This document shows, one piece after another, positions 6,365 through 58,274 of a stretch of DNA of 64,000 nucleotides. The position numbers were made by a program, and so were the translations under genes. The notes under the pieces were generated by a model. That model saw only the letters and a program-made list of their open reading frames with translations, made no database searches and was not told the DNA's origin. Source of the stretch: a virus. Position 1 is the first letter of the stretch. Every line of letters starts with the position of its first letter. The stretch lies in IMG/VR virus record IMGVR_UViG_3300017742_004322, positions 1 to 64,000 of that record. One strand, given 5' to 3'.

Positions 6365-7111
6365 TTATTTATTTTGATTTGTAAAGAATTCCATTACTTG
6401 ATCACTCTTCATTGTAGCTAATGCAGCATCGTATTTTTTAGCAATTTTGTAATCACCATTACTATGAACATTAAGTATAATGTAACTACCATTATCAAAT
6501 TGACCTTTAACACGTTGAGTACTAACAAACTTTCTACTGTAACGATCATAATCAGTAAAGATATGAAATTTAGCTGTTGGGAATTTTTTACGTAAAGTTT
6601 TTAAAGCAATCTCAAAACCTCTATTACTTCTACGAGTTTCTTCCATGTCGTATTCAGCACGATCACGTTTAAAATTTAATTTAGCAAGTAAAGTAGCTGG
6701 TTTAACTTTACGGTAACTACCCATTAAGCTCTCACATTCAAATTTACCATTAGCAAAATCAAACCAATTAATTTCAATATCAACTATTTTATCATCTTCA
6801 CGGCTGTAACGCTTACTTAAAAAACTAATACCACCACGCTTACCTGTGTAGCTAACATCATTAACTAGGAAATTAGAATTATTAAAGCTGTAACCTAATT
6901 CAACATCTTCAACTACATTATATATTTCAAAATTATTGTTAAAATCAACACCTTTAACAAAACCTGCATCAATTAATGCAATTTCTGTTTCCTCATTTTT
7001 AATTTTAGCACTTTGTGCTCTAACTACTTGATTATTAATAAATTCTTCTAGTTGAGTTTGTTGTTTTGTATTTAAAACAACTCCTTGAAACAAATCTAAC
7101 TGCATTTCCAT
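6365..7111 (-). CDS. Hypothetical phage protein (probably early)
   Basis: 248-aa ORF directly downstream of a class 1 promoter. Confidence 0.7.
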   Translation of the reverse strand: MEMQLDLFQGVVLNTKQQTQLEEFINNQVVRAQSAKIKNEETEIALIDAGFVKGVDFNNNFEIYNVVEDVELGYSFNNSNFLVNDVSYTGKRGGISFLSKRYSREDDKIVDIEINWFDFANGKFECESLMGSYRKVKPATLLAKLNFKRDRAEYDMEETRRSNRGFEIALKTLRKKFPTAKFHIFTDYDRYSRKFVSTQRVKGQFDNGSYIILNVHSNGDYKIAKKYDAALATMKSDQVMEFFTNQNK

Positions 7112-7145
7112 AACCTTTATTTTATAATTTATCCTTATTTACCCT

Positions 7146-7178
7146 GTAAATATACGAACTATTCTTCAGGTAACCAAA
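7146..7178 (-). promoter_or_regulatory. Class 1 promoter
   Basis: TTTGG-N15-TTCGTATATTTAC. Confidence 0.75.
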
Positions 7179-7290
7179 TATTTCGCGCTTTTTCTTTGCG
7201 AGTATATTTCTTTTTATTACGGTAGATATTAGGACGGGTTGCCATCTTAATTTCTTCATGTGTTACTATGATTTTTTCTACCTTTTTCAT
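7159..7290 (-). CDS. 43-aa basic peptide (not in ORF track), ArfA-like C-terminal pattern
   Basis: MKKVEKIIVTHEEIKMATRPNIYRNKKKYTRKEKARNIWLPEE, with its own promoter at 7295-7327. Confidence 0.55.
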   Translation of the reverse strand: MKKVEKIIVTHEEIKMATRPNIYRNKKKYTRKEKARNIWLPEE

Positions 7291-7335
7291 ATACATAAAT
7301 ATACGAATAATTTTTACGATAACCACATGTCCCAT

Positions 7336-7363
7336 AAAAAAAAGCCCCGCTTTCGCGAGGCTT
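7336..7363 (-). terminator. Rho-independent terminator
   Basis: AAGCCTCGC-GAAA-GCGGGGCTT followed by a T-run. Confidence 0.9.
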
Positions 7364-7386
7364 CTTAATTTTTAATTAATCCTTAC

Positions 7387-7617
7387 TTACTTTTTCAGGA
7401 TATTAAATAATACAAACGCACCTACTAATCCAAGTAAGCCTGCTGCGTCTAAATTGCCTAAAATTCCCATGATATTATCTACAACAGATATATCTTTCCA
7501 GAAGGGAATATTGGCTCCGCCAAATAGTACTTCTAATACTATTCCTAAAGAGATTACTGAAATACCTATCTCAGTAAGTTTGTTGGCCCAAGAGCCAATT
7601 TTGCTTAAAATTTCCAT
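7387..7617 (-). CDS. Small hydrophobic Gly-rich membrane protein
   Basis: 76 aa with two hydrophobic segments; stand-alone unit between terminators. Confidence 0.75.
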   Translation of the reverse strand: MEILSKIGSWANKLTEIGISVISLGIVLEVLFGGANIPFWKDISVVDNIMGILGNLDAAGLLGLVGAFVLFNILKK

Positions 7618-7714
7618 TTAATAAAATTTAAGGTTAAACTTATATAACTACCGATCGAGTTTTGGTAACTATAGCAGTAGAGCAAGTACTGCGCGTTGTG
7701 TATTCATACATATA

Positions 7715-7740
7715 GAAAGGGGGTTGAAAAACAACCCCCT
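7715..7740 (-). terminator. Terminator after the TonB-dependent receptor gene
   Basis: AGGGGGTTG-TTTTT-CAACCCCCT-TTCT. Confidence 0.75.
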
Positions 7741-7761
7741 CCACTATATTTGTTGGTTAAC

Positions 7762-10326
7762 TTAGAAGTTATACTTCAAAGAAGCATTCCAAGTACGTCC
7801 AAATCCAAACCAAACTGAATTACGAACATCAACACCGTTCCAGGTAGTTGAAGTTTCATCAGCATGAATACTTGTATTTGATTCTGCAATATAAACAGCA
7901 TCTAACAAGTTATTTACGTTAAGACGTAATGTCCAGTTTTTAAAACGAGACGTTAAACCTAAATCAACTAAACCATAAGAAGGTAATTTAACAGCACCTC
8001 TATTATCAGGAGTGTAAAATTCTTCATCTACAATTGAATAGTCAGCATATAGACCATCTACTAAACGAAGACCTAAATCAATACTAGTAGATTTAATTAG
8101 CTTATAATCAGCAGTAAAATAAGCAGTAGTTTGAGCTGCATCACCTACCTTAGCACCTTTTAAGTACAATGTACCTTCACCAATTTGAACTTGATTATCA
8201 TCAAACAATGCTGCTGTGAAATCTTTAGTATATCTCCAGTCACCTAAAGAAATCATACCTTTCAATCTCAACTTACTAGTAGCAAAGTAATCTGCTTCAA
8301 GCTCTATACCATTATGACGAACATCAATATCTGTAAATTGAGCTGAACCATCAACACCTTGAGAATTACTCAATGATACTGTTTGGAAACGATTTCCCCA
8401 TATAGTAGAATAAGCATTAACATTAACAGTTAAATTCTTAGCATTATAACCATAACCTACTTCAAATGAAATAATTTCTTCATTTTCTAGATCTGGGTTA
8501 ATTGTGTTTCCATAATTAGGGAATACAGCACCAAATTGAGCTTGACGTGAAATGTATCCTGTATTTACAAATATATTATGTACATCAGAAACGTTGTAGT
8601 TAACACCACCTTTTGCATATCCACCTAATTGATTATGAACATCTGAGATAGGCATTTCTGGTTGGTCGAAATAATCTTTACGTTGGAAAGATTGATTTGA
8701 TAAACCACCTTGAATTACTGCATTGTACTTACCGTCTTTATTATACTCAACTAAACCATTCAAACCTTGCCATCCTACAACACCTACGTTATAATAGTCA
8801 ATTTTTGGACCGTTTAATCCTGTATTATTAAATGGACTTGCATTAACTGTAGTGTTAATAATTTGACCATTTGAATTCTTATTTCCTGTTGAATAATATC
8901 CATCAAGACCCATCAAGTTATTTACTACACGATAGTGATAACCTGTATAAGAACGTAAATCAACACCAATTGATGTTTTAAAATTACCAAATTGTCCTTC
9001 TAAATTAGATATAGCACCAACCCAGTCATGTGAATTCATAGAAGCTCTACGTATAAGTACAACTCTATTAACATTACTATCGCGGAAACCATTTGATCCT
9101 ATCATTTGACCATCAAATCCTGAAATATCACCAGTATAACCATCTGTTGAGCTTTGATTTGCTGCAACAATTGCATCGAAATCAATAGCACCAGTAATAG
9201 AATCACGTGCACCTTTACCATCTTCAAGGTAGTGCTCTGTTAAATCCTTTCTAAAAGGTAAAATGTCAGTTGCAGATCCTCTATAGTTATTACCTCTTGG
9301 ACCTGTTCCTCCACCTCTACCAGCTGAACCATACAATGAGGTAACTAGTTTAAGGTTGTCTGAAATTTCCCAATCCCAGTTGAATGTTGCTAATGGCTTA
9401 TTATAGAAATTTCTACGCATAGAAAACTCTTCACCATTTAACATACCACCATTTGAATTCCATCTACGATTAATATCGCCAGTTTCTAGATCATCTCTAT
9501 CTCCATGGAAATTTTGATAATCACGAATAGATACCCAAACGTCTCTTTGATGATGTTGTTGTCCTGCACCTAAAAAGGTAAAGTTTAAGCTATGATCTGA
9601 ACCTTCTGGAGCATAACCTACAGCAGCAAAGTAGTTATAACCTTCACCTGCAGTACTGTTAATGTATCCATTACCTAACCATCTACTTAGAAGGAAAGAT
9701 GTTGCCCATCCACTCTTATTTTTACCACTATTCCAAACAGCTGATGTTTTAAAGTAACCATCGTTACCTGCCATTTGAGTCAATGATCCACCTGCTTTTT
9801 TATCAGCAGCTTTTGTATAGATACTTACCGTACCACCTACAGAAGGGACTGCTAATTTAGAAGCACCAAGACCTCTCTGAATCTGGATACCAGAAGCAAC
9901 GTCTGTAAGACCTTGCCAGTTGGACCAGTACAATCTACCATTTTCCATATCATTAACAGGTTGCCCGTTAATAAGGAATGAAGTGTTGGTTTGATCAAAT
10001 CCTCTTAAAGAGATCCTTGAATCACCATACCCACCACCTTGCTTGGTAGCGTACACACCTGGAGTTGTGTTCATAATTTCTGGGAACTCTAAGTTACCAG
10101 TCTTTAAAGAAATCTCTGCCATAGAGATTGTTGATACTGCTATTGGAGTTTCTCTCACTTTAGCAAGATCAATGACTCCTGATGAAACTACTATCTCTTC
10201 GAGCATAGTTGCATTCATTACAGAATCAATGGCATTAATGTCAGCGTCTGTACTTGTTTGACCAAGAGCAACGTTAACAGAAAATAGCATACCAATTAAT
10301 AGGAATGCGAATTTACCTTTTTTCAT
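7762..10326 (-). CDS. TonB-dependent outer-membrane receptor
   Basis: Signal peptide MKKGKFAFLLIG..., TonB-box-like LEEIVVS, plug motifs (ISLRGF, LINGQPVND), C-terminal NVNNLLD...GRTWNASLKYNF. Start moved to the ATG at 10326. Confidence 0.92.
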   Translation of the reverse strand: MKKGKFAFLLIGMLFSVNVALGQTSTDADINAIDSVMNATMLEEIVVSSGVIDLAKVRETPIAVSTISMAEISLKTGNLEFPEIMNTTPGVYATKQGGGYGDSRISLRGFDQTNTSFLINGQPVNDMENGRLYWSNWQGLTDVASGIQIQRGLGASKLAVPSVGGTVSIYTKAADKKAGGSLTQMAGNDGYFKTSAVWNSGKNKSGWATSFLLSRWLGNGYINSTAGEGYNYFAAVGYAPEGSDHSLNFTFLGAGQQHHQRDVWVSIRDYQNFHGDRDDLETGDINRRWNSNGGMLNGEEFSMRRNFYNKPLATFNWDWEISDNLKLVTSLYGSAGRGGGTGPRGNNYRGSATDILPFRKDLTEHYLEDGKGARDSITGAIDFDAIVAANQSSTDGYTGDISGFDGQMIGSNGFRDSNVNRVVLIRRASMNSHDWVGAISNLEGQFGNFKTSIGVDLRSYTGYHYRVVNNLMGLDGYYSTGNKNSNGQIINTTVNASPFNNTGLNGPKIDYYNVGVVGWQGLNGLVEYNKDGKYNAVIQGGLSNQSFQRKDYFDQPEMPISDVHNQLGGYAKGGVNYNVSDVHNIFVNTGYISRQAQFGAVFPNYGNTINPDLENEEIISFEVGYGYNAKNLTVNVNAYSTIWGNRFQTVSLSNSQGVDGSAQFTDIDVRHNGIELEADYFATSKLRLKGMISLGDWRYTKDFTAALFDDNQVQIGEGTLYLKGAKVGDAAQTTAYFTADYKLIKSTSIDLGLRLVDGLYADYSIVDEEFYTPDNRGAVKLPSYGLVDLGLTSRFKNWTLRLNVNNLLDAVYIAESNTSIHADETSTTWNGVDVRNSVWFGFGRTWNASLKYNF

Positions 10327-52559: not shown

Positions 52560-52592
52560 GTAAATATACGAAGACCCTTTCGGGTCTCCAAA
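52560..52592 (-). promoter_or_regulatory. Class 1 promoter with a GAAA-tetraloop hairpin in the spacer
   Basis: TTTGG-AGACCC-GAAA-GGGTCT-TCGTATATTTAC. Confidence 0.8.
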
Positions 52593-52837: not shown

Positions 52838-53950
52838 TTAATATGTTATAGTTAAATCTTCATCTTCTAGATTTTTATAATCATCATGGAATTTTTTTTC
52901 TATTCGTCTTCTCCTAAATTCACCTAAAGCAATTTTATTTTCTAAGTTATCCATTTTAGTTTTAACATATTCTTCTTCAGTAAGGGTAGGTAGGGTATGT
53001 TTTTTTAATAAACCATCCCATCCAGGGATTAAAGCAGGGTTTATAGGAAAGGAAAGAATTTTTTCTTTTAGGGTTGGTTTTTTAATTATTTCTTCATCAT
53101 TATCTTCATCTGTAAGTTTTTCCCCATAAATATTTTCTTTTGGATTTAATTTTTCAAAAGCAAAATTAGCAGCAATTACAAGAGCAATGGCTAAAGGATC
53201 AAATACAAATATAATAGTTAAAAGTAACCAATTAATAATTTTATCCATTGGTATACCCGTTAATCCTGAGAGATATTTTAAGGGGCCTAATTCACCTGCT
53301 ATGTCATTATTAGTTTTTACTTCTACTATCTCAGTTTCATATTTAAATAATTGTTCATTTAAATTATCTACTTTAGTATTAATTTCAGTTTGACGAGCTA
53401 TAGCTTGGTCTAATTGTCTTTCTAATGCCCTACGAGTTGAACTAGAAGTTGTGTTGATAATCTGACCAGTTTCCTTGTCTTTATACTGGATTTTATTGTT
53501 AGATAAGCCAGACCTCAAATCAGATACTGCCCCGTTAATGGTGCTTTTTTCCGCGTTGTATACCGCTAATTGTTCCCTAATATTATCTCGTTTAGTTTCA
53601 ATTAAAGCAATTTGAGAATCTATACTTCCTGCTTTAGCTGCTGTTTCTTGATAGGCAGCTGAAAGGAAACCATAAATACCCATACTAGTAATTAATACTA
53701 GAACAAAAGCAGCTATTGTTAAATAGTATTTTAATAATTTAGGGATTGATTTACGATACTGGTAGAGTAGGGATGCAATGACTAATTTAGCTACTTCTAA
53801 TGAAGTAGCCATAATTATTACAGCTAAAGTAGCCCCAGCAAAAAGTTTGCTAAGACCGCTAACTGAATAGAAAGCGGCCGAAGCAGAAACTGACAGGGCA
53901 GAGGATGCGATTATAAAAGGAAATATCCTTTTTTGGATTTTTTTCCACAT
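52838..53950 (-). CDS. Membrane protein: 3 TM, long coiled coil, 1 TM (DUF4407-like)
   Basis: Hydropathy pattern; GPL.Y and IIFVFDPLA motifs. Confidence 0.65.
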   Translation of the reverse strand: MWKKIQKRIFPFIIASSALSVSASAAFYSVSGLSKLFAGATLAVIIMATSLEVAKLVIASLLYQYRKSIPKLLKYYLTIAAFVLVLITSMGIYGFLSAAYQETAAKAGSIDSQIALIETKRDNIREQLAVYNAEKSTINGAVSDLRSGLSNNKIQYKDKETGQIINTTSSSTRRALERQLDQAIARQTEINTKVDNLNEQLFKYETEIVEVKTNNDIAGELGPLKYLSGLTGIPMDKIINWLLLTIIFVFDPLAIALVIAANFAFEKLNPKENIYGEKLTDEDNDEEIIKKPTLKEKILSFPINPALIPGWDGLLKKHTLPTLTEEEYVKTKMDNLENKIALGEFRRRRIEKKFHDDYKNLEDEDLTITY

Positions 53951-53956
53951 GGGGGT

Positions 53957-54376
53957 TTACTTTCTAAAGCCCTTGTGGTTATCTATGCGATCTAATAATT
54001 TATTTAATTCTTCAGCTTTTATAAATCCAGCCATAGATGCATTTTTAAGGGCACTGATTATTTGTAATATAATGAACGGTATGATAACTGCTTCGCTAAG
54101 CCAAGCTGTTCCTGTAAAACCTTTTTCTACCATTAATACTACTGTTAAAAACATAACCCAACCTATAGCACGTTGTAATACACGAACTGCTTTTCTTGTT
54201 TGAAAACCTTCACGTTTAATTCCAGCTACTATACCAAAAAAACCATCTATAAAGACAACAGCTATTAAGCCAAGATATTGTTCAGCGTTACTCATAGTAA
54301 GCTCCATAAAATAAGAGCATAAAAAAGATAGTGTCAAAATAGGGACGGTTAAGAAAGTTATAGTGGAAGTTTTCAT
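53957..54376 (-). CDS. Phage holin (Hol44/TcdE-like)
   Basis: Several TM segments; ID...G and ...S.L.N...G pattern; adjacent to the endolysin. Confidence 0.7.
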   Translation of the reverse strand: MKTSTITFLTVPILTLSFLCSYFMELTMSNAEQYLGLIAVVFIDGFFGIVAGIKREGFQTRKAVRVLQRAIGWVMFLTVVLMVEKGFTGTAWLSEAVIIPFIILQIISALKNASMAGFIKAEELNKLLDRIDNHKGFRK

Positions 54377-54843
54377 ATTGACCAGTTTTCGTAATAAGTC
54401 TTTCCTTTGGAATTTCTTTTAGCTGATAGGATTTGGCCTCTTTGTTCTCCATCACTATTATATGAAACATGAACCCAATCAGGTCTTTCGTTAGTTCCAA
54501 ATTCCCAGATTAATTGGTCAAATGGTAAATTTTCTCTAATATAATGAAATATTTCTTCATTTTCTGGGCCATTTCGATAATCCATATCAATATCAATAGC
54601 TTCACCTTTTGAATGTTGTGAAGTCTTGGAGCCACCAATTGCTTCATTTAAAGCTTGGCTTCTATATCCTGAAGAAATGAAAATAGGTTTAGCGAAGTGT
54701 TCTCTAATTGGTTGAAATATTTTTTCAGCTAATAATTTAGCTGCCTCTAGATGTTTGCCTTTAGGAGTATTATCTAAACCTCTACGTTTTGCAGTTGAAG
54801 ATCTAGTAAATTCACCTAAAGATAAGTTTTTAGATAATTTCAT
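54373..54843 (-). CDS. Zn-dependent peptidase M15 (endolysin candidate)
   Basis: SSGYRS..LN..IGG...SQH..G.A.D and WVHVS motifs; true start MKLSKNLSL at 54843. Confidence 0.9.
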   Translation of the reverse strand: MKLSKNLSLGEFTRSSTAKRRGLDNTPKGKHLEAAKLLAEKIFQPIREHFAKPIFISSGYRSQALNEAIGGSKTSQHSKGEAIDIDMDYRNGPENEEIFHYIRENLPFDQLIWEFGTNERPDWVHVSYNSDGEQRGQILSAKRNSKGKTYYENWSI

Positions 54844-54850
54844 AAGTTTA

Positions 54851-54925
54851 CTAATTACAATTACAGCATGAACATCCACAGGTAAAGTGACAATTACATA
54901 CTATACAATTACAGCTATTTTTCAT
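54851..54925 (-). CDS. 24-aa Cys-rich metallothionein-like peptide (not in ORF track)
   Basis: MKNSCNCIVCNCHFTCGCSCCNCN. Its ATG overlaps the upstream TGA (ATGA) and it fills the gap before the endolysin. Confidence 0.7.
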   Translation of the reverse strand: MKNSCNCIVCNCHFTCGCSCCNCN

Positions 54926-55143
54926 TTTTTAGCAAATTTTTCTAATCCTGCGATACCAAATGAACCTAATGTGATAAATACAAATGAGTTATAAATGAAT
55001 TCTTGAATTACTAAGTCTTTACCAAAGTAACCTGTTACTAAGTCTACTATAGCAAATATTACCATTACAGCAAACGCCATAAATCCAATAACATTCTTTT
55101 CATTTACGTTATTATCATCTTTAAAAATATCTTTAAAGGCCAT
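54922..55143 (-). CDS. Small 2-TM holin-like protein
   Basis: Two TM helices and a charged C-terminus; first gene of the lysis cassette. Confidence 0.55.
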   Translation of the reverse strand: MAFKDIFKDDNNVNEKNVIGFMAFAVMVIFAIVDLVTGYFGKDLVIQEFIYNSFVFITLGSFGIAGLEKFAKK

Positions 55144-55211
55144 GATTTTATTTTTTATATTATTAGGCATATAAAAACCATTAAGTATAACAAATTATAT
55201 GCTTATACATA

Positions 55212-55751
55212 TTATTTATTTTTATAGAAAAACTCTAAAATTTCTTTTTCTAACACAGTATCCATAACAAAATTATCGCCATATTGAATACTTGTAAAAG
55301 TTCCATCATTTTCATTAACAATTTCAATAATATAATCTATTTCATCATATATTAAACTATAACTTTCACTTTTTTTAACTAAATTAATGCTTTTGTTTTT
55401 ATCTTCTTGAATCCCAGTAAATGTAATTTCTTTATTACTTAAATCCGGAACATTAGTAAGCTTAGTTACACACTGGGCATAATTTGAGTGAAGAGTATCA
55501 ATTAGATATGTATTATCTAATTCACTCATTAAATATAATCTTTGTTTTGAGTCTAATCCACCAGCTTTGAAATCACCAGTATATTGCACCATTGGTAATG
55601 ATAATAAAACTAATTTTAATTCCGGGGCAAGCTTATTAAAATTTACTACAGAAGTTATTTGATTACTATTATTAATATCTCTATTAAAAGGTAAAGATAG
55701 AAGATCATAAAAAGTCTTTGTGCTAAGATTATCTAATATCTGAGGGCTCAT
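55212..55751 (-). CDS. Hypothetical soluble protein, last gene of the kinase operon
   Basis: 179-aa ORF starting 1 nt after the upstream stop. Confidence 0.65.
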   Translation of the reverse strand: MSPQILDNLSTKTFYDLLSLPFNRDINNSNQITSVVNFNKLAPELKLVLLSLPMVQYTGDFKAGGLDSKQRLYLMSELDNTYLIDTLHSNYAQCVTKLTNVPDLSNKEITFTGIQEDKNKSINLVKKSESYSLIYDEIDYIIEIVNENDGTFTSIQYGDNFVMDTVLEKEILEFFYKNK

Positions 55752-55752
55752 T

Positions 55753-56325
55753 TTATTCTTTTTCTGTTGCGTATTTAACTCCCATAATTGTGCCTACAAT
55801 AGAAAATGCATTTGTAAGTAAAATACCAAACATATTACTCCAGGTTGATCCTATAATTTGAGTATCTGCTCCTGAAGTTAGTGCGATAGCATACATAATT
55901 GTAGTAATTATACCCACACCAACTATTACTACTAAAGCAACTTTCACAATTGTACTAATTAGTTCAAATTGGGTTTTCTTTTGCATTACTTCTAAATCTT
56001 CTAATGCTTTATCCTTACCCTTTTCTGCTTTTTCTCTTAATTGATTTGATGATTCTAATGCTACTTGAAGCTCCTTCATTAGAGTATCATTTTCTTTTTG
56101 TTTTTCAACAAGTTCTCCATTTTGTTTTTGAACTTGTTTCGTAACCTCTAAACGTTTTTTACGTCTAGTAGTATCTTTTTCTTTACAGAGTTCAAGATAT
56201 TTCTCAAATTCATTATCACCTTTTGGGGCTTTAAGAAGTTTAAGGAAATTTCCTTCTACATAGATTTTTCTTTTTTTAGCAACCTCTAGTAGAACATTTC
56301 TTACATGCTCTGTTATTTCTATCAT
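55753..56325 (-). CDS. Coiled-coil plus 2-TM membrane protein, coupled to the response regulator
   Basis: Helical N-terminal domain, heptad region, two C-terminal TM helices; TAATG overlap with the receiver gene. Confidence 0.75.
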   Translation of the reverse strand: MIEITEHVRNVLLEVAKKRKIYVEGNFLKLLKAPKGDNEFEKYLELCKEKDTTRRKKRLEVTKQVQKQNGELVEKQKENDTLMKELQVALESSNQLREKAEKGKDKALEDLEVMQKKTQFELISTIVKVALVVIVGVGIITTIMYAIALTSGADTQIIGSTWSNMFGILLTNAFSIVGTIMGVKYATEKE

Positions 56326-56762
56326 TACCTATAAACTTTAAATTCAGCTGATCTATCTTTATAAGCATCATAATCTGTCATAAATTCTTCTAATCGAGGT
56401 TCAATATCATCTGATTTAATAATCCAAAATTGAGCTCCAGCGGCTTTTGCTTTTTCAATTTCTTGATTGTCATCTGATGATGATATAATTCCTATTACAC
56501 ATCCATTACCATACTCAAAATTAATTTTACGAATTAACTCAATTCCATCAAAAGATGAACCAAGTATATTTAAATCAACAAATACACATTCGGGGCGTTC
56601 TTCATTAGGGTCATCGGGCCACCATTCTTTAAATTTAAGATTAGCTTCATCTGAAGAATTAAGGGCTTCTAGAGATAAAGTTATATCTAAGATGCTACAG
56701 GCATCTTCAAATACCAAGTGGAATAGATCCTCATCGTCTATAAGTAATATAGAATTTATCAT
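56325..56762 (-). CDS. Stand-alone response regulator (receiver domain)
   Basis: ILLIDDE, phospho-acceptor FVDLN, DGIEL, ISSS and AGA..WIIK motifs; no output domain. Confidence 0.92.
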   Translation of the reverse strand: MINSILLIDDEDLFHLVFEDACSILDITLSLEALNSSDEANLKFKEWWPDDPNEERPECVFVDLNILGSSFDGIELIRKINFEYGNGCVIGIISSSDDNQEIEKAKAAGAQFWIIKSDDIEPRLEEFMTDYDAYKDRSAEFKVYR

Positions 56763-57997
56763 GTTGTTTTAATTTTTATTTTTAATATAGTTCCTGTTTT
56801 TGTTTTTTCAGAGGTTATAGCAAAACCATGTTCTTTTAATATTGCGATACATATATTTAATCCTAACCCTGATCCTCCTTCTTTTTGCCCTGCTTTTCTA
56901 GTATATGGTTTTGATAATTGAAGGAATTCTTCATTAGTCATTCCTCTTCCATTATCTTCTATACATAAAGTAGAATCATTACCCATATAAATAGATACTA
57001 ATTTAGTAGAACTATCATTATATTTTAACCCATTTCTAATTAAATTGTCTATTGCTGTACAAAATAAAGGTTCATTTACATTTACTACAGGTAAACTTTT
57101 AATTTTAACTTGCTTAATATAAGATGTAGCAGATAAATAATTATTTAGTATAACTGCTAAATTATGATCTTCCATATCTAATTGAGCATCTTCTTTTACT
57201 AAGTTAGTAAATTCTTTAACTCCAGCATAAACTCTTTGTGTATGTTTTAAACCTTCTTCTAACATTTTTAAAGGAGCTTCTATTTTTAATTCTTTAATTT
57301 TTTCAGCAGAAACTCTTCTTTTTAAAGAAGTTAACCCCCTAGGCATATATGTGTTAATTCCACTATGCATATCGTGTCTTAAAATTTTAGCAGCATGTTC
57401 TAAATAAGAATTTTTCTGGTTGACTTCAATTTCAGCATTGTGTTGTATAGTTGTATCTGTTGCTATTTTTAAAACTTTATTATACCCACCCTTAGGATCT
57501 TTTATTGGAGTATAATTACCAAATAACCAACGAGAAGTACCATCCCTAGCAATTCTTTCAAATTCACCACTAATAGTTTCACCTCTTTGTAGTCTTTTCC
57601 AAAATTCATGATAGTCTAAACTATTGCTATACTCTTTAGGAACCATATATCTATGGTTTTTGTTTTTTAATTCTTTTTCTGTATAACCCATAGTAGTACA
57701 AAAGTTGCTATTATGAGATAAAATTTTCCCTTCCATATTAAGTACTACTACTATATTTGATTTATCAATTGCATTTAATTGTAAATCAATATTTGCTTCT
57801 TTTAATTTAGAAGTACGATTAAAATCCCAAATAATATAAGAAAAGAAAGGAATTAGGGCAATTATACATCCATACCCAAATTCAGCTAAAAAATAACTAA
57901 ACTCAAATACTCTAAATACAAGAAAAGTTTCTAATATAAAGAATATAAGTATAATTCCAACTGATATGCCTAAACATATTTTTGTAGCTTTATTCAT
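56759..57997 (-). CDS. Membrane PAS/PAC sensor histidine kinase
   Basis: Two N-terminal TMs; PAS/PAC (N..F...GY..EL, FW..L..G, RDG..RW, PI.D, D.T); H-box RHD; N-box NLIRNGLKY; G1 DNGRG; G2 GSGLGL. Confidence 0.93.
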   Translation of the reverse strand: MNKATKICLGISVGIILIFFILETFLVFRVFEFSYFLAEFGYGCIIALIPFFSYIIWDFNRTSKLKEANIDLQLNAIDKSNIVVVLNMEGKILSHNSNFCTTMGYTEKELKNKNHRYMVPKEYSNSLDYHEFWKRLQRGETISGEFERIARDGTSRWLFGNYTPIKDPKGGYNKVLKIATDTTIQHNAEIEVNQKNSYLEHAAKILRHDMHSGINTYMPRGLTSLKRRVSAEKIKELKIEAPLKMLEEGLKHTQRVYAGVKEFTNLVKEDAQLDMEDHNLAVILNNYLSATSYIKQVKIKSLPVVNVNEPLFCTAIDNLIRNGLKYNDSSTKLVSIYMGNDSTLCIEDNGRGMTNEEFLQLSKPYTRKAGQKEGGSGLGLNICIAILKEHGFAITSEKTKTGTILKIKIKTT

Positions 57998-58009
57998 AGT
58001 TATAAATAT

Positions 58010-58038
58010 AAAAAAAGGAACGCTAAATTGCGTTCCTT
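58010..58038 (-). terminator. Terminator insulating the kinase operon
   Basis: AAGGAACGC-AATTTA-GCGTTCC followed by T7. Confidence 0.85.
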
Positions 58039-58061
58039 CTTGGCATTTTAAATAAAGTAAT

Positions 58062-58274
58062 TTACTTTTTTATTAGCTTAGATACCTTTAATTTTACAAT
58101 ATCCCAATTACGAGTTGCAAATACACCAAAAGCAAACCCAGCATAAATTTTGTAGCCAAAAGCCCATAAGATAAGACCGGCAATTAAACCTACTACACCT
58201 TCAATTCCGTTAGCTATAACCCAATCTTTAATAGTTATAAAGATTTTTTTGATAAAGTTTAATACTTTTTTCAT
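58062..58274 (-). CDS. Small membrane protein
   Basis: 70 aa with a Gly-rich hydrophobic hairpin and basic ends. Confidence 0.65.
   Translation of the reverse strand: MKKVLNFIKKIFITIKDWVIANGIEGVVGLIAGLILWAFGYKIYAGFAFGVFATRNWDIVKLKVSKLIKK

Follow-up and report, generated by a model that had tools for sequence, protein, structure and literature searches.

Gene layout of the locus

The stretch of DNA analysed here, referred to as the window, comprises 64 kb (about 30% GC) out of the 74.9-kb IMG/VR virus record IMGVR_UViG_3300017742_004322, to which CheckV assigns a completeness of 51%; no tRNA genes were found in the window. Its region 52838-58038, in which every gene lies on the minus strand, encodes a membrane histidine kinase, a stand-alone receiver and a coiled-coil protein with two transmembrane (TM) helices, followed by a lysis cassette, and is considered here as a possible phage-borne sensor relay tied to lysis. 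The kinase (412 amino acids (aa); 56759..57997), delineated with Pfam, AlphaFold2 and Foldseek, is made up of two TM helices, a PAS domain (residues 82-182; 57452..57754; Pfam and profile alignment), a DHp helical hairpin (residues 183-268; 57194..57451; model and alignment), in which the codon of H208 occupies 57374-57376, and a catalytic ATP-binding (CA) domain with invariant N, G1 and G2 boxes (residues 269-412; 56762..57193; Pfam and alignment). The receiver (145 aa; 56325..56762; Pfam and alignment) has its D63 codon at 56574-56576. The 190-aa coiled-coil 2-TM protein, which we call cc2TM (55753..56325), is an open reading frame (ORF) that comparison among relatives divides into an N-terminal cytoplasmic domain confined to the receiver-linked form (residues 1-70; 56116..56325) and a putative output module consisting of a juxtamembrane helix and a 2-TM hairpin (residues 105-190; 55756..56013).

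Transcription runs from the ribonucleotide reductase (RNR) small- and large-subunit genes through the gene for a 70-aa membrane protein (58062..58274) and a terminator-like hairpin, found by sequence scan, with a 12-bp stem and a T run (58012..58041), to the kinase, receiver and cc2TM genes. A 179-aa soluble protein (55212..55751) comes next, and then an 82-aa 2-TM holin-like protein (54922..55170), a 24-aa ORF with nine Cys codons (54851..54925), a peptidase M15_3 endolysin (54373..54879, probable ATG at 54843; Pfam E 8e-22), a holin of the Phage_holin_4_1 family (53957..54376; Pfam E 2e-8) and, at the end of the cassette, a 370-aa multi-TM coiled-coil protein identified as an ORF and by comparison (52838..53950). 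ThyA lies further on, so that the region is flanked by both RNR subunits on one side and by ThyA on the other. The kinase and receiver genes overlap by 4 nucleotides (nt), receiver and cc2TM by 1 nt, and a gap of 1 nt separates cc2TM from the 179-aa gene; 41 nt separate the latter from the 82-aa gene, whose distance from the end of cc2TM is 583 nt.

These domain and ORF analyses bear out the inventory of an earlier note made from the DNA letters, which listed a 2-TM PAS kinase, a receiver, a coiled-coil 2-TM protein, a 179-aa protein without assignment and a lysis cassette between RNR and ThyA. The same note described the relay genes as an operon insulated by terminators. Terminators are indeed present, but they enclose relay and lysis genes rather than the relay alone: the next terminator-like hairpin downstream of the one before the kinase lies at 52569..52590 (minus strand, sequence scan), and because our scan of the window revealed no terminator-like site between the 179-aa gene and the lysis genes, both sets belong to one terminator-bounded unit. 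A candidate promoter box said to be common to relay and lysis genes could not be established. Before the kinase and before the 82-aa gene the Bacteroidota motif TAnnTTTG is matched only approximately, and a simple sigma-70 promoter scan returned sites no more numerous than in shuffled sequence.

Features of the kinase and receiver

Pfam recognizes PAS_3 (E 9e-12) and HATPase_c (E 3e-13) in the kinase, and profile alignments with PDB and NCBIfam entries begin only at DHp helix 2. The AlphaFold2 model (pLDDT 84.8) places TM helices at residues 3-27 and 35-58 with a 7-residue loop between them, followed by the PAS domain (82-181), DHp helix 1 with H208 (183-228), DHp helix 2 (240-266) and the CA domain (276-408), and Foldseek ranks PAS/LOV histidine kinases first among structures resembling this model (YF1, 4gcz, E 5e-18; VicK, 4i5s). 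Across 34 sequences 46-82% identical to the window kinase, YLEHAAKILRHDMHSGINTY, the H-box RHDMHSGIN with its H208-D209 pair, the N box (N318/N322), the G1 motif DNGRG (348-352) and the G2 motif GxGLGLN (375-381) are all invariant. HisKA kinases carry the pattern H-[E/D]-x-x-[T/N/S]; H208-D209...S212 matches it in the middle of DHp helix 1, about 110 residues ahead of the N box, and H208 is thus the candidate phospho-acceptor. Another placement of the H-box, at IKELKIEAPL as in a weak CpxA alignment (3 bits), was rejected because the model puts this stretch at the turn of the DHp hairpin and the start of helix 2. The kinase shares two features with class I (HisKA-type) kinases, a GHKL domain with N, G1 and G2 boxes and a DHp hairpin with a conserved His and acidic residue.

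The nearest solved relatives of the PAS domain by profile alignment are MmoS PAS-A (3ewk, E 6e-18) and Aer (8dik, E 3e-13), in agreement with the earlier suggestion of a chemoreceptor-type PAS domain, and Foldseek superposes the kinase model on 3ewk with a root-mean-square deviation of 2.0 over 114 columns. Aer, together with the redox sensors MmoS and NifL, whose PAS domains bind flavin adenine dinucleotide (FAD), forms the group of nearest solved relatives; by its fold and these neighbours the domain resembles the FAD-binding PAS class. Six Aer residues, H53, R57, H58, D60, W70 and N85, are what we take from the Aer literature to be its flavin contacts. H53 and W70 are kept in the alignment (kinase H115 and W133), and R57, H58, D60 and N85 are replaced by V, K, Y and R. 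The redox or energy state of the cell as the PAS signal is only a lead, drawn from these nearest relatives.

The receiver matches Response_reg (PF00072) at 31.2 bits, against a Pfam cut-off of 30.2, and its residues D9, D10, D63, S94, W113 and K116 are invariant in 29 sequences; D63 and K116 remain invariant in a wider family at 27-68% identity. It can be placed among CheY-like receivers by a marginal profile match and by the full catalytic residue set in those 29 sequences. Its nearest solved structure is another stand-alone receiver, 3ilh (E 3e-5), which presumably comes from a Bacteroidota species. Only 130 matches at E<=1e-3 were obtained among 1.84 billion representative proteins, and a pattern scan with two distant relatives, P0245 and P0267, gave no match in IMG/VR. 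By these comparisons the family to which the receiver belongs is very small and divergent, and its members have a C-terminal extension. Pfam finds no output domain in it, and control must therefore act by protein contact; the earlier expectation of a post-translational, membrane-bound output gains support from the predicted proteins. From intact domains, invariant residues, the model and its fold matches, both kinase and receiver look functional.

A conserved triad restricted to viruses

Neighbourhood data for relatives of these genes came from our own ORF calling, clustering and hidden Markov models (HMMs), and 109 non-redundant viral loci make up the set in which the context of the triad of kinase, receiver and cc2TM was compared. 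IMG/VR scans yielded at least 578 kinase loci and at least 303 receiver loci. The kinase directly precedes the receiver in 96/96 loci, and cc2TM follows the receiver within 1.8 kb in 81 of 85, the remaining four having it by tblastn. This co-inheritance spans receiver identities of 63-100% and kinase identities of 44-99%, which bears out the earlier view of a complete, conserved system: the triad is a fixed unit across the survey. Conservation is unevenly spread within it. Mean pairwise identity is about 0.48 in the sensor parts of the kinase (TM and PAS), 0.66 in the CA domain and 0.91 in the DHp core (residues 195-228); it is 0.83 in the receiver, 0.56 in the N-domain of cc2TM and 0.91 in its second TM helix. 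Across the triad family, then, the input varies, and the core of the transfer machinery and the membrane output stay constant.

The earlier note had named a recent, sporadic capture from a host as one finding that would overturn its view; we looked for signs of one in phage, species and Bacteroidota genomes and saw none. Among 50,697 GenBank phage records there is no relative of the receiver or of cc2TM, and the sole kinase match covers the PAS domain alone. Metagenomes, by contrast, hold thousands of variants of the family, from lakes as well as from seawater, so that the supposed rarity of two-component systems in lytic phages fits the GenBank records and not the metagenomic ones. Flavobacterium phage immuto, the nearest cultured phage, shares only lysis-cassette genes with the window and has no triad. 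Among 185,579 species genomes, the receiver occurs in only six contigs of metagenome-assembled genomes (MAGs), L139-L144, which were binned into five discordant phyla (Bdellovibrionota, Verrucomicrobia, Gemmatimonadota, Alphaproteobacteria and Bacteroidetes). Every one of these contigs that is long enough has kinase- and cc2TM-like matches, some of them partial or split, beside the receiver. Discordant bins and triad neighbours together make the pattern of mis-binned phage DNA, and this is most likely what the six contigs are. The kinase profile was also compared with 300 Bacteroidota genomes, where its best cellular match is confined to the PAS domain at no more than 131 bits, compared with 495 bits for a mis-binned phage contig. 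On this sampling, the triad is a conserved, virus-specific unit and not a sporadic host capture.

Some distant loci have tandem kinase genes or kinase fragments ahead of the receiver (L140:3923-7495; L144:~7000-8000). At L144 the receiver and cc2TM matches are also split over frames, which suggests frameshifts or assembly errors.

The membrane hairpin is also fused directly to sensor domains

Residues 105-190 of cc2TM recur in 808 longer proteins, with identities of 70-79% for the best of them in the region formed by the juxtamembrane helix and both TM helices. In these proteins the hairpin is joined to two tandem PAS domains (366-372 aa proteins) or to GAF (341-363 aa proteins), and the PAS domains are of the same subtype as that of the kinase, with 36-38% identity to it. 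The contigs that carry such genes are viral. None of 83 fused-gene loci contains the receiver, and the kinase is likewise missing from all of them. Where at least 1.5 kb is available on either side (62 loci), an endolysin or holin gene lies within 1 kb of the fused gene in 54 and within 2 kb in 56. The nearest lysis gene within 2 kb is an Amidase_2 in 24 loci, an M15 peptidase in 21, a member of the unassigned c28 family in six and a holin in five, and the side on which it lies varies. The gene that most often directly adjoins the fused gene, in 46/75 loci, encodes a relative of the 82-aa 2-TM protein. Phage_lysozyme and GH19 enzymes and spanin-like genes appear in some related cassettes.

At L227 the gene order is RNR small subunit, RNR large subunit, fused gene, 82-aa protein, M15 and 370-aa protein, and at L202 it is RNR large subunit, fused gene, 82-aa protein, lysozyme and M15, with ThyA further on. 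The fused gene thus occupies the frame in which the window has kinase, receiver, cc2TM and the 179-aa gene, and the one- and two-component forms therefore replace each other at the slot before the endolysin. Sensors are also swapped within the two-component form, where TM-GAF-PAS kinases of 592-707 aa are paired with the same receiver and with a 225-aa cc2TM; at L249 a GH19 endolysin starts 14 nt past cc2TM.

Because hairpin-sensor fusions occur in loci without kinase or receiver, we conclude that the hairpin is probably an output module rather than an accessory of the kinase. The fusions with PAS and GAF, the proximity to lysis genes and the common slot lead us further to conclude that it would belong functionally with the lysis genes, as an output module of lysis cassettes whose inputs can be swapped. 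Since the N-domain of cc2TM occurs only together with the receiver, it is the likely docking site of the latter.

At one locus, L167:1719-2446, the fused gene is immediately preceded by a lipoprotein-like ORF, whose signal sequence ends in Cys, and by a gene for an 85-aa protein in which a coiled coil accompanies an N-terminal TM helix; together they resemble a spanin pair.

cc2TM and the accompanying small genes

Neither cc2TM nor the 179-aa protein matches any family in Pfam, PHROG, NCBIfam or PADLOC, and PADLOC assigns none of the region's proteins to a defence family. In the protein atlas cc2TM matches only its own viral cluster, under an automatic name without meaning, and we treat the JGI label 'Fe2+ transport system protein B' as an automatic mislabel. 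As a small inner-membrane protein in a lysis cassette, cc2TM does fit the general description of holins and antiholins, by its position in the window and by that of its fused homologues (54/62). A co-fold of the receiver with cc2TM residues 1-122 scored 0.23 against a mark of 0.32, which counts neither for nor against binding. The 179-aa protein lies downstream of cc2TM in 43/109 loci; its AlphaFold2 model (pLDDT 78) has no Foldseek match in the PDB at E<=0.001, a wide VIA search reached a best Z of 4.6, and the protein atlas holds no informative match to it.

A small membrane protein commonly precedes the kinase, namely c5 in 41 loci, c15 in 15 and the 70-aa type of the window in seven. The first of these membrane proteins, c5, has 62-80 aa and a GxCPS motif and looks DUF2892-like, with no Pfam match. 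Translational coupling joins it to the start of the kinase in its 41 loci (for example L074:7771-7968 and L098:6565-6750), and c15 is coupled to the kinase in the same way. The window's 70-aa protein is unrelated to c5, and its gene is parted from the kinase by the terminator-like hairpin. Between receiver and cc2TM, 25 loci have a 165-aa membrane protein and four have a rhodopsin. The window itself contains no homologue of c5, c7, c22 or the rhodopsin.

The rhodopsin is compact (192-193 aa) and found in four related viral loci (L044:10170-10748, L047:10165-10743, L117:6529-7104 and L116:7547-8122), where it follows the receiver and a 167-aa membrane protein and precedes cc2TM. Pfam identifies it as Bac_rhodopsin (E 1e-13). 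Its helix C reads RYxDWxxTxPILxYQ (D-T-Q), helix F contains WMFYP and helix G has the Schiff-base Lys in DxxAK.

Two further cassette genes have relatives elsewhere. The 24-aa nine-Cys ORF is kept in four close relatives of the window (L002:4178-4252, L003:3796-3870, L004:6030-6104 and L082:2887-2961), and its amino-acid changes spare every Cys (MKNNCNCITCTCQATCACLCCNCN versus MKNSCNCIVCNCHFTCGCSCCNCN), which favours a real micro-gene. The 370-aa protein has a counterpart in gp185 of the triad-less phage immuto (50% identity; L001:8659-9804), and four other small genes fill the space from the holin to gp185 in that phage.

Occurrence and expression

In seawater and viral metagenomes from over ten studies, 93-98% of the stretch is present; the carriers are abundant aquatic phages, probably of Bacteroidota hosts. 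Exact matches to the kinase, to the junction of receiver and cc2TM, to the 179-aa gene and to the lysis genes occur among short contigs of seawater metatranscriptomes from four studies, which hints weakly at expression.

Discussion

Taken together, the conserved triad and its one-component counterparts lead us to favour, with moderate confidence, the view that the relay is a phage-lineage-specific sensor phosphorelay that gates a membrane hairpin of the lysis cassette. The membrane-anchored kinase would use its PAS domain to read a signal from the cytoplasm or from close to the membrane, autophosphorylate on H208 and hand the phosphate on to D63 of the stand-alone receiver. In its phosphorylated state the receiver would then bind the N-terminal cytoplasmic domain of cc2TM, and the resulting change may run via the coiled coil to the juxtamembrane helix and the 2-TM hairpin, which in turn could shift the time at which the neighbouring holin or holins permeabilize the membrane. 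The hairpin may be antiholin-like or co-holin-like, as we only infer the direction of its effect on lysis. A broader proposal, to which we give rather less credence and which we offer tentatively, is that these proteins represent an undescribed and very widespread family of phage lysis regulators, in which one conserved hairpin is served by interchangeable PAS, GAF or phospho-receiver inputs and through which lytic phages of marine and fresh waters compute lysis time from the condition of the infected host, for instance its redox or energy state or light.

Several observations weigh against a role in lysis or against parts of the relay. In the two-component form, a recognizable holin or endolysin lies within 3-6 kb in only 14-16 of the 39 informative loci (those with at least 3 kb on both sides); these counts are lower bounds, since our HMMs for lysis genes were limited to families encountered in this material. 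Members of one large clade have the triad between a sigma-like gene and baseplate genes. The sampled fused loci, at 82-91% identity to a single query, amount to few independent lineages, though their neighbours differ. No holin or antiholin family described in the databases searched resembles the hairpin, no Pfam HisKA family (PF00512) is detected in the kinase at E<=0.1, the receiver clears its Pfam cut-off by only 1 bit, and contigs in RNA libraries may derive from DNA carry-over, hence the weakness of the expression hint. The link between relay and lysis, which in the earlier note stood on adjacency and a candidate promoter, is nevertheless much strengthened: it now extends beyond adjacency to hairpins fused to PAS and GAF in lysis cassettes of other phages and to the use of the same slot, but not to most loci of the two-component form. 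In the baseplate-linked clade the sigma-like gene, which lies two genes ahead of the kinase (L098:5685-6401 and 11 further loci), codes for 240 aa, among them a region resembling sigma factors, and has no Pfam or PHROG match.

These observations give some room to an unlikely alternative, in which relay and hairpin act at the membrane on something other than lysis timing, such as superinfection exclusion, host energization or respiration, or a light response, and nearness to lysis genes reflects a common membrane-protein or late-gene neighbourhood. It would account for the more than half of informative two-component loci without a recognizable lysis gene nearby and for the baseplate-linked clade, and it is in keeping with a complete microbial rhodopsin between receiver and cc2TM in four related loci, with redox and energy sensors as the nearest solved PAS domains and with a hairpin outside the holin families. 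It does less well with the fused genes, which stay within 1 kb of an endolysin or holin in 54/62 loci despite swaps of endolysin type and side, and which replace the triad at the same slot before the endolysin. Holin triggering depends on membrane energization, and energy-sensing and lysis roles therefore do not exclude each other.

The fused genes also bear on the role of cc2TM within the relay. Kinase operons commonly encode accessory membrane regulators, and cc2TM could be one of these, in the manner of LiaF with LiaS or MgrB with PhoQ, in which case the target of the receiver would be an unlinked protein of phage or host, for example a late sigma factor or a host motor. The company that the kinase keeps with other small membrane proteins (tm70, c5, c15 and c7) and the sigma-like gene just upstream of the module in one clade speak for such an arrangement. 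Yet the hairpin occurs with fused PAS or GAF in loci holding no kinase or receiver (0/83), and the N-domain of cc2TM is confined to receiver-bearing loci, and we regard an accessory role as improbable. Least probable by far, and already contradicted, is the view that the phage recently took over a host two-component system, which is now a passenger or in decay and has no phage-specific role. A PAS type common among Bacteroidota kinases and a nearest solved receiver, 3ilh, that we assume to be of Bacteroidota origin would suit a host source, but hundreds of viral loci keep the triad with catalytic residues intact at kinase identities of 44-99%, no sampled cellular genome has a full-length relative, and the closest cultured relative phage has no triad.

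The systems closest in function to the proposed sensor relay at the lysis cassette are T4 and ICP1 lysis inhibition and LytSR with Cid/Lrg, none of which is related to it in sequence or wiring. Lysis inhibition in T4 involves holin T with the antiholins RI, which is periplasmic, and RIII, which is cytoplasmic (PMC11413866, PMC8385771), and ICP1 also shows lysis inhibition (PMC7182436). As in T4, a phage regulator in or near the lysis cassette would tune holin triggering on a sensed signal, at the protein level and at the inner membrane. There is no sequence or family relation, and whereas in T4 it is a small soluble protein of the periplasm that detects superinfection, the input here is a cytoplasmic PAS or GAF domain, either fused to the hairpin or connected with it through a predicted His-Asp phosphorelay. 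The LytSR system of staphylococci and streptococci, with CidAB/LrgAB (PMC2996381, PMC5717393), likewise ties a two-component system to holin- and antiholin-like membrane proteins and to membrane energization. However, LytS is a multi-TM kinase of another type and LytR a DNA-binding protein that acts on lrgAB transcription; the viral system has a PAS kinase and a receiver without an output domain, and lies outside the LytS/LytTR class.

Individual parts have other counterparts. Pathways with single-domain receivers (CheA-CheY, KinA-Spo0F and the phytochrome-Rcp1 type) similarly combine a class I kinase core with a CheY-like receiver whose output is the binding of a partner, and the acidic pocket, Ser/Thr, aromatic switch residue and Lys of such receivers are all kept here; they differ from the present module in its divergent H-box RHDMHSGIN and in its likely partner, a membrane protein outside the known families. 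The fused forms recall Aer in that helices connect a PAS domain with a membrane hairpin, but there is no HAMP or MCP signalling domain, and the aligned PAS domain of the kinase does not retain Aer residues R57, H58, D60 and N85. A precedent for a phage-borne histidine-kinase signalling gene is provided by the agr genes of the Clostridioides difficile phage phiCDHM1 (PMC3901668). Those are host-like quorum-sensing genes of a temperate phage, with no cognate stand-alone receiver and membrane effector and no tie to lysis genes. Our full-text literature searches returned no paper on a phage kinase-receiver pair or on a sensor-fused holin-like protein, and the module is a new combination of known kinds of parts.

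The timing of lysis sets burst size and phage fitness, and to our knowledge signal-responsive control of lysis is otherwise known only as lysis inhibition in T-even phages and ICP1. The module described here has a defined sensor, a predicted phospho-switch from H208 to D63 and an 86-residue membrane output, and natural one-component versions of it exist. If the proposed reading is right, it would be the first His-Asp phosphorelay known to control the lysis clock by protein contact, would offer a compact sensor-to-membrane switch and would change models of burst timing for abundant aquatic phages of seawater and lakes.

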